Positions 9,608 to 11,616 of a stretch of 32,000 nucleotides of DNA are shown piece by piece. This DNA is from Citrobacter sp. Marseille-Q6884 (GTDB taxonomy: Bacteria; Pseudomonadota; Gammaproteobacteria; Enterobacterales; Enterobacteriaceae). The number at the start of each line of letters is the position of its first letter. The stretch's first letter is position 1. Made by a program: the position numbers and the translations under genes. The stretch spans positions 741,513-773,512 of the forward strand of contig NZ_CAMDRE010000002.1 in the NCBI RefSeq assembly GCF_945906775.1. Direction: 5' to 3'. Under the pieces are notes generated by a model, which worked only from the letters and a program-made list of their open reading frames with translations, had not been told where the DNA came from and did no database searches.

Positions 9608-9825
9608 ATCCTCCCAATCTTCTTACGCAATTCCATATCGCTCTGGCATCCGACGCACATCGTGCATCCCGGATACGCTTTCCGGCGCGCATCCAGTAAC
9701 TTGTCGCCGCATTCCTCACAGTGCGTTGCTGATACTGCTGAGTGGTTGAGTCTGTGAGCCTGAATAGCGTTTTCGCGCATCATCTCTTCGAGAGCGCTGG
9801 CTTGGTCGATGATTTCAGATGTCAT
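9604..9825 (-). CDS. TraR/DksA-family C4 zinc-finger protein
   Basis: 73-aa ORF with CEECGDKL...(17)...CVGCQ four-Cys spacing typical of phage TraR-like proteins. ATGA overlap with the upstream gene. Confidence 0.75.
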   Translation of the reverse strand: MTSEIIDQASALEEMMRENAIQAHRLNHSAVSATHCEECGDKLLDARRKAYPGCTMCVGCQSDMELRKKIGRM

Positions 9826-10310
9826 GATTCGGAACCTTTTATAAAGATAATCCAGTGAGTTTTGTCGCTCTTACCGGTGCGCTGACCGATGATTGGCTTA
9901 ACGTCAGTCAAAGCTAAAATCTGGCTGACAGGTATCTGAGTTTCATTCCATTTGAAGATGAGAACGCCTTGTGGCCATAGCACCCTGAATGCTTCAGCGA
10001 AACCGGCGCGAATGTCGTCACGCCACGTTTCTTTGTTGAGCCGCCCGTACTTTTTCCCCATCCACGCGTTATCGCCGACACGTTCTAGGTGCGGCGGATC
10101 GAACACGACGACAGGAAAAGTGTTATCGGCAAAGGGTAGGGCGCGGAAATCAGCTATAAGGTCCGGGCTGATAACCAACTGGCGACCGTCACAAAGCACG
10201 TGTTCTTCTGCGCGAATATCGCTAAACACTGCTCTTTCGTCCTGCTTGTCGAACCAGAACATGCGAGAGCCGCAGCACATATCCAGAATTGAAACTTCGC
10301 TCATAATCAC
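9822..10310 (-). CDS. small SAM-dependent methyltransferase, probably DNA N6-adenine or N4-cytosine
   Basis: 162-aa ORF with a motif-I-like ILDMCCGS and a motif-IV-like FDPPH ((D/N/S)PP(Y/F/H) type). Confidence 0.65.
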   Translation of the reverse strand: MIMSEVSILDMCCGSRMFWFDKQDERAVFSDIRAEEHVLCDGRQLVISPDLIADFRALPFADNTFPVVVFDPPHLERVGDNAWMGKKYGRLNKETWRDDIRAGFAEAFRVLWPQGVLIFKWNETQIPVSQILALTDVKPIIGQRTGKSDKTHWIIFIKGSES

Positions 10311-10401: not shown

Positions 10402-11157
10402 TCATGCTGCGTCCTCAATCTGGTTTAAGCAGGGAGAATGCTGCTGCAGCCACTCTTGGAACCTGTCCATTGCCAAGGGCTTTAATTCTGTCCACCCCGA
10501 AGGCCACATCATCAGCCACTCTGCGTAGTTTGGGCAGATGTTCAGGCCAGGCGTTTCCTCCCCGCCATCCTGCAAATGCTTCCATGCTAACCAGTCCTCC
10601 AGGTTGTGACGGTGCTCCCCGGTTCTCGCTCTGCACCATGCTATCCCATGACTTCCCATGCTTGCCCTTGGTGTAGGCTGCAATCCAGATACGGTCACGT
10701 CGATGGGGCGCTCCAAGGTCTGATGCTGATAAACAACACCATTCCGAATCAAACCCCATTTTGGCAAGGTCACTAATGACCATTGCAAGTCCTCTTCCCA
10801 CAAGCAAAGGTGAGTTTTCCACGAATGCGAATCTAGGTCGTACCTCACCGATGATTCTTGCCATTTGCCTCCAAAGTCCAGATCGACTTCCGTCGATTCC
10901 TGCTCCTTTTCCTGCTCCTGATATGTCCTGGCATGGAAACCCGCCAGAAACGACATCAACAATTCCCCGCCACGGTTTTCCGTCAAAGCTACACACGTCA
11001 GACCAAATCGGGAAAGGTCGGAAAATTCCATCGTTTTGTCGTTGCGCGAGAACTTGTGCGGCGTAGGCATCACGTTCAACTGCGCAGACTGTTCGCCACC
11101 CAAGGAGGTGTCCACCGAGTACTCCTCCACCAGCGCCTGCGAAAAGAGCCAACTCAT
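10402..11157 (-). CDS. alternative-frame ORF (+1 relative to the C5-MTase) spanning the whole methyltransferase gene; coding status unverified
   Basis: 251 codons without a stop. The ATG directly abuts the upstream TGA (TGAATG) and lies 8 nt after the shared GGAGG. Contains LQPTPRAS and NYAEWLMMWPSGWTELKPL. See findings. Confidence 0.3.
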   Translation of the reverse strand: MSWLFSQALVEEYSVDTSLGGEQSAQLNVMPTPHKFSRNDKTMEFSDLSRFGLTCVALTENRGGELLMSFLAGFHARTYQEQEKEQESTEVDLDFGGKWQESSVRYDLDSHSWKTHLCLWEEDLQWSLVTLPKWGLIRNGVVYQHQTLERPIDVTVSGLQPTPRASMGSHGIAWCRARTGEHRHNLEDWLAWKHLQDGGEETPGLNICPNYAEWLMMWPSGWTELKPLAMDRFQEWLQQHSPCLNQIEDAA

Positions 11158-11161
11158 TCAC
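10415..11161 (-). CDS. DNA (cytosine-5) methyltransferase, short orphan phage type
   Basis: 248-aa ORF with a GTG start overlapping the upstream stop (GTGA). C5-MTase motifs: I LFAGAGGG, IV GGFPCQDIS, VI FVENSP, VIII APHRRDRIWI, X LGNGQVP. Confidence 0.9.
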   Translation of the reverse strand: MNELALFAGAGGGVLGGHLLGWRTVCAVERDAYAAQVLAQRQNDGIFRPFPIWSDVCSFDGKPWRGIVDVVSGGFPCQDISGAGKGAGIDGSRSGLWRQMARIIGEVRPRFAFVENSPLLVGRGLAMVISDLAKMGFDSEWCCLSASDLGAPHRRDRIWIAAYTKGKHGKSWDSMVQSENRGAPSQPGGLVSMEAFAGWRGGNAWPEHLPKLRRVADDVAFGVDRIKALGNGQVPRVAAAAFSLLKPD

Positions 11162-11616
11162 ATTTCCTCCCGTTCAGGACTTCTCGTATCCCATCCATTC
11201 CGCTCAATATTCACAGCCAGCCGCTTATCTCCGACCTCTTCGATACTCCTACCAGTAATCTCGGCTACTTCTGCGTTGGTGTATCGCATGAGTATTGCTA
11301 ACTCTTCAGTTGACCATTCACGCATAGTTAATCCTCCGGATCGGGCCAGCGCGTCACGCTTGCTTCTGACTGAGTAAATGGAGCGACCGGTTGCCTTGGC
11401 TATCTCTTCCTCTGAGAACCGACCAAATAGATGAAGCTCGGCTGCCGTCCATGGTCTGCCGGTCATCTTTCTGATAAGTGGTGCACCAATACGTGATGCC
11501 TGGCGAGTGATTGCCGCTTCGGAACGCTCAAGCTTTTCTGCTATTTCTGAGCGGGACATCTTCATCCCAACCTCGTGCAGAAACAGGTTTTCAAAGGGTT
11601 GCCAAAGTTCGCTCAT
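11158..11616 (-). CDS. protein with three Myb/SANT-like HTH repeats
   Basis: 152-aa ORF with three copies of the pattern W..(E)EL....(5-8)..EIA..TGRS...V..KR: SRSEIAEKLERSEAAITRQ, WTAAELHLF..EEEIAKATGRSIYSVRSKR and WSTEELAIL..NAEVAEITGRSIEEVGDKR. Confidence 0.6.
   Translation of the reverse strand: MSELWQPFENLFLHEVGMKMSRSEIAEKLERSEAAITRQASRIGAPLIRKMTGRPWTAAELHLFGRFSEEEIAKATGRSIYSVRSKRDALARSGGLTMREWSTEELAILMRYTNAEVAEITGRSIEEVGDKRLAVNIERNGWDTRSPEREEM

Follow-up and report, generated by a model that had tools for sequence, protein, structure and literature searches.

Two-polypeptide cytosine-5 DNA methyltransferases (C5-MTases) have been described before, and the closest to the locus considered here is M.EcoHK31I of E. 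coli (YGGCCR; Lee, Kam & Shaw, 1995). According to its descriptions, both chains of this enzyme are needed; the alpha chain carries motifs I–VIII as well as motif X, and motif IX resides on the beta chain, which is encoded wholly inside the alpha gene in a different frame (PMC2836561, PMC3404938). M.AquI is described as a pair of open reading frames (ORFs), the first with motifs I–VIII and the second with part of the variable region and motifs IX–X (Karreman & de Waard, 1990; PMC3404938). The principle is known from M.EcoHK31I since 1995 and, for consecutive ORFs, from M.AquI. In this work we focus on a gene found in a 32,000-nucleotide stretch of DNA from Citrobacter sp. Marseille-Q6884 (contig NZ_CAMDRE010000002.1, positions 741,513 to 773,512; hereafter the window, to which all coordinates refer), which corresponds to the early region of an enterobacterial lambdoid prophage. 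Two ORFs, A and B, occupy the same 750 nt of this gene in two frames, and we consider it likely that together they encode a C5-MTase composed of two polypeptides, alpha from ORF A and beta from ORF B.

The locus resembles M.EcoHK31I in that its predicted alpha chain carries motifs I–VIII and X, while motif IX (LNICPNYAEWLMMWPSGWT) lies in beta, inside the alpha gene, in a +1 frame that is open and under purifying selection. This likeness is to the published description of M.EcoHK31I; an earlier note on this DNA, made from its sequence, had missed this experimentally characterised precedent. Unlike that of M.EcoHK31I, the beta of the window is as long as alpha (251 versus 248 codons), and the two starts are only 4 nt apart, on one Shine–Dalgarno sequence (SD). 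In the literature on M.EcoHK31I, the recognition domain is assigned to alpha, whereas in the window, judging by the pattern of selection, the recognition modules belong to beta and the inter-motif segment of alpha is unconstrained filler. Furthermore, M.EcoHK31I serves as methyltransferase in a named restriction-modification system, whereas the gene in the window is flanked by a helix-turn-helix protein and a second methyltransferase (MTase), with no adjacent nuclease. Relative to the precedent as the literature presents it, the differences are the length of beta and the spacing of the starts, the recognition modules in beta, and the flanking genes. A literature search found no description of this phage and prophage family as a two-frame system.

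Other arrangements of the same enzyme are found among relatives. Monomeric M.HhaI and M.HaeIII, as well as the single-chain proteins P0496 and P0420, have the same motifs in the same order, in one frame and one chain. In alignments, frame A covers the 170 residues at their N-terminus, and frame B covers motif IX and the last PTP module of the single-chain relatives. In Gordonia phage Upyo (L161, 1284-2553), gp54 carries motifs I–VIII and the next gene, gp53, annotated as 'DNA methylase', lies in the +1 frame of gp54 and combines four LLPTPxAxD..GG modules, motif IX (LNPKLSEWMMGLPDGHVTD) and motif X (ALKILGNGVVP) in one frame. The product of gp53 matches phrog_1008 at 5.6e-57, the same family as the middle zones of B. 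The +1 frame is open throughout gp54, and the pair is a split C5-MTase, which may work as two subunits or by a +1 frameshift. Homologues of gp53 number in the thousands, and many of them are proteins of 350–406 aa with PF00145, that is, single-chain enzymes in which a single frame holds motifs I–VIII, the PTP modules and motifs IX and X. M.AquI and Upyo gp54/gp53 are split like the enzyme proposed here but consist of consecutive ORFs and keep motif X together with IX; because motif X of the window is back in the first frame, the second ORF must be read across the first. The homologues include single-chain enzymes as well as AquI/Upyo-like and EcoHK31I-like forms, so that a path via two successive frameshift mutations is visible. 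Finally, overprinted viral genes, and the out-of-frame HNH endonuclease within the 'ShiLan' insertion of actinophage methylases (PMC11855218), share with this locus a long same-strand overlap with one frame open just for read-through. Unlike in those cases, the second frame of the locus appears to be no new or foreign gene but the segment that the enzyme would otherwise lack, and at most positions constraint acts in one frame only.

Two open frames and a shared initiation site

Both ORFs exist as the earlier note had claimed and run through the whole gene, but they are located on the minus strand:

10415..11161, minus strand: ORF A, putative alpha; GTG start, 248 aa; motifs I–VIII, filler at aa ~160-223, motif X
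10402..11157, minus strand: ORF B, putative beta; ATG start, 251 aa, +1 frame of A; leader, one PTP module, motif IX, conserved tail
11155..11170, minus strand: shared initiation site; SD GGAGG at 11166-11170, GTG of A at 11159-11161, upstream TGA at 11158-11160, ATG of B at 11155-11157

The stop codon of ORF B is 13 nt downstream of that of ORF A. At the other end, the elements follow one another in the order GGAGG-AAAT-GTG (start of A)/TGA (upstream stop)/ATG (start of B), written GGAGGAAATGTGAATGAG; on the minus strand, GGAGG AAAT is followed by GTGAATGAG, the TGA of an upstream 152-aa gene overlapping the GTG of A and the ATG of B coming directly after it. The earlier note had drawn attention to this placement of the starts beside the upstream stop, which turns out to be conserved. 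The gene start reads [A/G/T]TGAATGAG in 122 of 144 homologues, and starts of the ATGAATGAG type are conserved among homologues. Moreover, Asn2 of A is encoded by AAT in 133/133 genes, as against 40% AAT at other Asn codons; the ATG of B is fixed in the family. In 57 of 130 homologous loci, the TGA between the two starts terminates an upstream ORF that is 50 codons or longer. Because the starts of A and B share one SD and flank the upstream stop, both proteins probably arise by initiation or reinitiation at one spot, GTGAATG.

Conservation of the second frame was examined in 160 loci retrieved with A, not B, as the query, of which 154 hold intact A genes with 47-97% identity to the A of the window. 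Among their hosts are Enterobacterales, Pseudomonas, Acinetobacter, Chromobacterium, Ralstonia, Nitrosomonas and several metagenome-assembled genomes. In the 154 intact genes, stops in frame B are confined to codon 0 ([A/G]TGA at the start of A) and to the last few codons. No internal B-frame stop was found in 141 of 149 homologues, where 4.5 per gene would be expected and the probability of finding none is about 1%; these expectations come from synonymous-codon shuffles within each gene, which preserve the A protein and its codon usage. By comparison, stops number about 16 per gene in the +2 frame and 4-8 per gene in the antisense frames. Frame B also stays open across variable inserts that extend the gene to 300-400 codons. 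The openness of the +1 frame in homologues, which the earlier note had named as a check, is thereby established, and the same shuffle control rules out the caveat raised there, namely that B is the +1 shadow of a Gly/Ala/Val-rich gene. Assembly frameshift errors are likewise ruled out by the recurrence of this layout in more than 150 independent contigs. On this evidence and on the substitution patterns described below, frame B is, as judged from sequence, a real and selected coding frame and no chance shadow ORF. Rare homologues do have an internal B-frame stop (L144 and L079 at codon 88, L040 at codon 298 of its 398), and may represent copies in decay or genes with internal beta starts.

Other statements about composition fared unequally. 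The 13 Trp residues counted in B are indeed present, and the abundance of rare codons in A was confirmed, since 36 of its 248 codons are GGA, CGA, AGA, AGG or ATA, whereas such codons account for 3.3% in 12 further ORFs of the window. The depletion of stops in five of six frames was overstated: antisense ORFs are 56-147 aa long here, and the antisense frames contain stops throughout the family, in the numbers given above.

Motifs and selection along the gene

The motifs of a C5-MTase are distributed over the two frames, and four segments are located as follows:

10925..10945, minus strand: motif IV with the catalytic Cys, A-frame GGFPCQD; aligned to GFPCQ of M.HhaI; B-frame reading AGFHART
10660..10683, minus strand: PTP module, B-frame LQPTPRAS; family consensus SGLWPTPRAS; core of the recognition region
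10489..10545, minus strand: motif IX, B-frame LNICPNYAEWLMMWPSGWT; A-frame reading of the same bases PEHLPKLRRVADDVAFGVD
10457..10480, minus strand: motif X, A-frame ALGNGQVP; G230, N231, Q233, V234 and P235 invariant

Pfam PF00145 matches ORF A with E=2.9e-30, over aa 4-170 only. Frame A contains motifs I (LFAGAGGG), IV (GGFPCQD), VI (ENS) and VIII (HRRDRIW) in one chain, as well as motif X (ALGNGQVP, with the GNxV signature), so that the motif assignment of the earlier note stands on both the Pfam match and the reading of motifs. ORF A was aligned to residues 15-168 of M.HhaI, and profile comparison with hhalign placed aa 1-168 of the A family on residues 2-182 of single-chain PF00145 enzymes (99.9%, E=1.2e-35). 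The recognition region and motif IX expected between VIII and X were not found in the A chain, where the bases of the gene's second zone are read as an R/G/S/E/Q-rich filler. The AlphaFold model agrees with this division: the predicted local distance difference test score (pLDDT) is 73-88 for aa 1-166, ~30 for aa 167-224 and ~70 for aa 225-248, and the filler, including RVADDVAFGVD, stays at ~30 between flanks of 66-88. The GNxxVP pattern of motif X was found in frame A of 128/144 genes and in frame B of one. Matches of the A type that are 303-337 aa long and cover only two thirds of A, such as P0166 and P0178, had been considered as single-chain forms; they were rejected because they proved to be ordinary alpha proteins whose filler is longer.

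Frame B has the missing parts. An IX-like pattern is present in frame B of 125 of the 144 genes and in frame A of none. P[TS]P motifs occur one to three times in frame B of 86 of 99 distinct variants (none in the other 13), compared with a single variant of the 99 in frame A. In the middle of frame B, the modules take the form W/LPTP(T/V/Q)A(S/R)D..G, followed by LNPxWVEWLMGWPxGWT(D/E)L, and B is more conserved than the overlapping residues of A at SGLWPTPRAS and LNP. Pairwise BLASTP of B against the single-chain P0420 is weak (E=0.05), so profile-profile comparison was needed; in hhalign, the B family matched residues 254-377 of single-chain enzymes, which comprise the last PTP module and motif IX (97.1%, E=5.8e-11), and motif IX of B was aligned to their RLsPxFxEWMMGLPxG. 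The middle zones of B match phrog_1008 as well (E=6.5e-18 and 7.5e-13 in a PHROG scan). Taken together, the profile alignments of A and B and the PHROG agreement indicate that the two frames represent consecutive parts of one canonical enzyme. The likeness of LQPTPRAS and EWLMMWPSGWT to long methyltransferases, pointed out in the earlier note, thus reflects real homology.

Searching a protein database with B alone, another check named there, returned 2844 clusters; the best 120 of these 2844 are mostly 241-255 aa long, reach down to ~46% identity, and are all 'hypothetical', none with PF00145. Pfam and NCBIfam scans of B gave no match. The existence of 2844 B-type database proteins means that in thousands of cases gene callers picked frame B rather than frame A.

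Substitutions were counted by codon phase in 22 close pairs of equal length with 75-99.5% nucleotide identity, and the ratio of nonsynonymous to synonymous substitution rates (dN/dS) was calculated by the Nei-Gojobori method for 12 pairs. Judged by codon-position identity over the whole gene alone, A resembles an ordinary single-frame gene in which the third position is the most variable, and the signal is visible only after the gene is split into zones:

10685..11161, minus strand: zone 1, A codons 1-159, motifs I–VIII; frame A under purifying selection, B kept open with few constrained positions
10493..10684, minus strand: zone 2, A codons 160-223, variable region and motif IX; frame B under purifying selection, A an open, unconstrained filler
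10418..10492, minus strand: zone 3, A codons 224-248, motif X; frame A selected; the overlapping B tail ELKPLAMDRFQEWLQQH also appears constrained

In zone 1, substitutions at A codon positions 1, 2 and 3 number 177, 58 and 398 (28/9/63%), and dN/dS is 0.16 in A and 0.94 in B, indicating selection on frame A; this excludes the idea that B is the real gene and A its shadow. Zone 2 shows the opposite, with 301, 118 and 100 substitutions (58/23/19%) at what are positions 3, 1 and 2 of B, and a dN/dS of 1.45 in A and 0.17 in B. The 14 codons of the motif IX block that precede motif X are biased further in the same direction (30/6/5, or 73/15/12%), again with frame B selected. Zone 3 is mixed in favour of frame A (47/31/75, or 31/20/49%; dN/dS 0.28 in A and 0.62 in B). 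Here GAC AGA CTT AAA GCC xTT GGA AAT is conserved, rare codons included, which suggests that the segment holding motif X and the B tail is constrained in both frames at once. The same pattern recurs in a clade of Vibrio phages that is ~30% identical to B (12/7/81% in zone 1, 90/0/10% in zone 2). Each segment of the gene is constrained mainly in one frame, in the order A, B, A, the other frame being merely stop-free. B-frame stops are absent from zone 1 in 108/108 genes, where 2.76 per gene would be expected, and A-frame stops are absent from zone 2, with 2.27 expected per gene.

Two claims of the earlier note need to be revised in this light. Within the candidate dual-coding region of about 750 nt, double constraint is suggested only for the segment of motif X and the B tail plus a few scattered positions, since purifying selection does not act on two frames at once in zones 1 and 2, where one frame has a dN/dS of at least 0.94. 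The sequence RVADGVxxRVD, proposed as a signature of short-type enzymes, results from reading EWLMGWPxGWT, that is motif IX, one base early, with 73% of substitutions at the third position of B and a pLDDT of ~30. The suggested trace of a frameshift relationship between subfamilies therefore holds insofar as RVADGVxxRVD is an out-of-frame motif IX, but frame A shows no amino-acid selection on it.

The scattered positions include residues of the B leader that are pinned through four-fold degenerate sites of A: V68 is GTT in 99% of genes, giving Leu67 of B, and G136 is GGG in 100%, giving the WG of LPKWG. Rare GGA, CGA, AGA, AGG and ATA codons make up 26 of the 159 A codons of zone 1 (16%). As xGA codons of A are read as Asp or Glu in the B leader, the leader is likely to be under some constraint, be it local or compositional.

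A putative two-polypeptide enzyme and its alternatives

We propose that alpha provides the large catalytic domain, which would bind S-adenosylmethionine (AdoMet) and contains motifs I–VIII and X, with some 60 unconstrained residues in between. This filler would be the out-of-frame reading of the functional part of beta. In turn, beta would supply what alpha lacks, namely one or more LLPTPxAxD..G target-recognition modules, motif IX (LNPxWVEWLMGWPxGWT) and a conserved C-terminal tail. The first ~150 residues of beta would be the out-of-frame reading of the catalytic domain of alpha and serve mainly as a translated leader that need only be stop-free. Alpha and beta are expected to associate, with beta placed where the small domain of a monomeric enzyme such as M.HhaI sits. 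Cytosine-5 methylation is the predicted activity of the locus. A natural fusion may be found in P0111, a 432-aa ORF on a metagenome contig, in which a full B-frame protein continues, uninterrupted by a stop, as a Dam-like MTase domain of the N6-adenine type (PF05869, NPPY motif); provided that this is no gene-calling accident, such a beta-Dam fusion would argue for translation of frame B.

Several observations weigh against this proposal or qualify it. The gene pairs used for the selection tests are phylogenetically non-independent, and naive dN/dS is biased in overlapping frames, though the contrast here is very large. The AlphaFold model of B alone has a mean pLDDT of 44.7, with only aa 170-220 at 60-78, and a Foldseek search with this model found nothing. 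Artificial A-B-A and A-B chimeras, compared with Pfam and with sequences of the PDB, did not extend the PF00145 or M.HhaI match past aa 160. A 150-residue leader with a dN/dS near 1 is an odd load for a subunit. In distant relatives from phages of Bacteroides, Porphyromonas and Synechococcus, B-frame stops occur within the first 38 or fewer codons while the PTP and IX parts are kept. That both polypeptides are produced, and that both are needed for methylation, is suggested by the conserved ATG, the open frames and the M.EcoHK31I precedent.

These early stops imply that beta must start internally in the distant relatives, and hence that the 5' ATG is maybe not the sole or essential start. It could accordingly be asked whether beta is real but internally started and nested, like that of M.EcoHK31I, with the 5' ATG and the long leader being incidental or regulatory; the leader may then only spare ribosomes from the adjacent ATG from terminating inside the gene. 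The near-neutral dN/dS of the leader and its pLDDT below 50 would fit, as would the internal Met codons of M.EcoHK31I beta, which have been suspected of being start sites, activity being lost upon their silent removal. The leader is nevertheless stop-free from a fixed ATG, invariant through AAT in every gene compared, zone 1 is devoid of B stops against the expectation given above, and some leader residues are fixed via the four-fold sites of A. We regard an exclusively internal start as rather unlikely for the gene of the window. The order A, B, A raises another question, as it corresponds to the canonical succession of large-domain motifs I–VIII, small-domain recognition region with motif IX, and large-domain motif X, and as single-chain relatives with this motif order exist. 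Two programmed ribosomal frameshifts could in principle yield one canonical chain, if ribosomes passed from A into B by a +1 shift after motif VIII and returned by a -1 shift after IX. Such a chain would need neither an open frame B in zone 1, nor an open frame A in zone 2, nor a conserved B ATG, and all three are conserved; there is no conserved slippery heptamer or in-frame stop at either junction, and instead of a zero frame that soon closes both frames are open from end to end. Two efficient shifts in one gene would also be unprecedented. Two polypeptides are preferred over frameshifts because of these open frames, the invariant ATG, the missing slippery site and the characterised precedent of M.EcoHK31I; the double frameshift is improbable, and a version of it in which full-length A and B are by-products of the single chain is disfavoured by the sequence evidence to the point of being very improbable.

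A function of B that is unrelated to methylation, for instance an independent overprinted protein for anti-restriction or regulation, would be compatible with its lack of a Pfam or NCBIfam match and with its low-confidence fold. The selected part of B is homologous to the recognition and IX segment of single-chain C5-MTases, however, and that very segment is absent from frame A, which makes such a function most unlikely. Least credible is the view that frame B is a non-functional relic or shadow left by two ancient compensating frameshifts, whose traces persist through the conservation of A only. Conservation of A does explain most of the similarity of B in zone 1, and some of the tblastn matches between B and methyltransferase genes that are very distant are such traces. 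Against it stand the constraint on B in zone 2 while A is unconstrained, the stronger conservation of B at the PTP consensus and LNP, the open frame in nearly all genes (long-insert variants included), and the near-restriction of PTP modules to frame B. Unless they are alignment artefacts, the substitution patterns, those of the Vibrio clade included, contradict a relic.

P0241 and P0042 are B-frame proteins of 392-402 aa that start with MSWLFSK and have ~150 extra, helical-looking residues before the normal B resumes at ...LQELAEEYS. This could represent an insertion or a mosaic junction just past the start codons.

Distribution, significance and neighbouring genes

The 750-nt same-strand overlap is conserved across Proteobacteria, and a nested form occurs in Bacteroidota and in cyanobacterial phages. 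The nested layout of the Bacteroides, Porphyromonas and Synechococcus phages resembles that of M.EcoHK31I. The 'DNA cytosine methyltransferase' family of the A type comprises at least 8000 clusters at 90% identity; its proteins are annotated as a complete enzyme and the partner ORF is unannotated or a 'hypothetical protein'. If the two-polypeptide reading is true, alpha alone would be without the DNA-recognition part, and specificity predictions from frame A would rest on meaningless sequence. The repeated PTP modules, ranging from zero to three P[TS]P per gene, suggest that the recognition subunit is modular and can vary while the catalytic protein is left as it is. With one frame held by stop avoidance alone and amino-acid constraint in the other, the locus is also a clean case and a natural test bed for methods that detect overlapping genes.

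At the nucleotide level, blastn against phage records found the gene at 70-80% identity in phages of Acinetobacter, Pseudomonas, Ralstonia, Microcystis, Vibrio and Bacteroides. This unusually far-reaching similarity is probably linked to the constraint of two frames together with horizontal spread. For one and the same gene, some phage records annotate frame A, as 'C-5 cytosine-specific DNA methylase', and others frame B, as 'hypothetical protein', even within one group's collection; the records compared were L162 (Ralstonia phage Gerry), L169 and L172 versus L164 and L170 (Vibrio phages).

The genes on either side of the locus are:

11158..11616, minus strand: upstream gene, helix-turn-helix protein of 152 aa; Sigma70_r4_2; phrog_11492; same frame as B
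9822-10310, minus strand: downstream gene, second DNA methyltransferase; phrog_954, E=2.4e-87; weak Pfam matches to S-adenosylmethionine-dependent MTases

The 152-aa upstream protein contains two Sigma70_r4_2-like helix-turn-helix stretches, and a weaker match to a D5-like transcriptional regulator was also found. In Salmonella phage S9-5, an 'adenine methylase' is located upstream instead and ends at the same TGA. On the downstream side, the gene at 9822-10310 and the A/B gene give the prophage two MTase genes in tandem.

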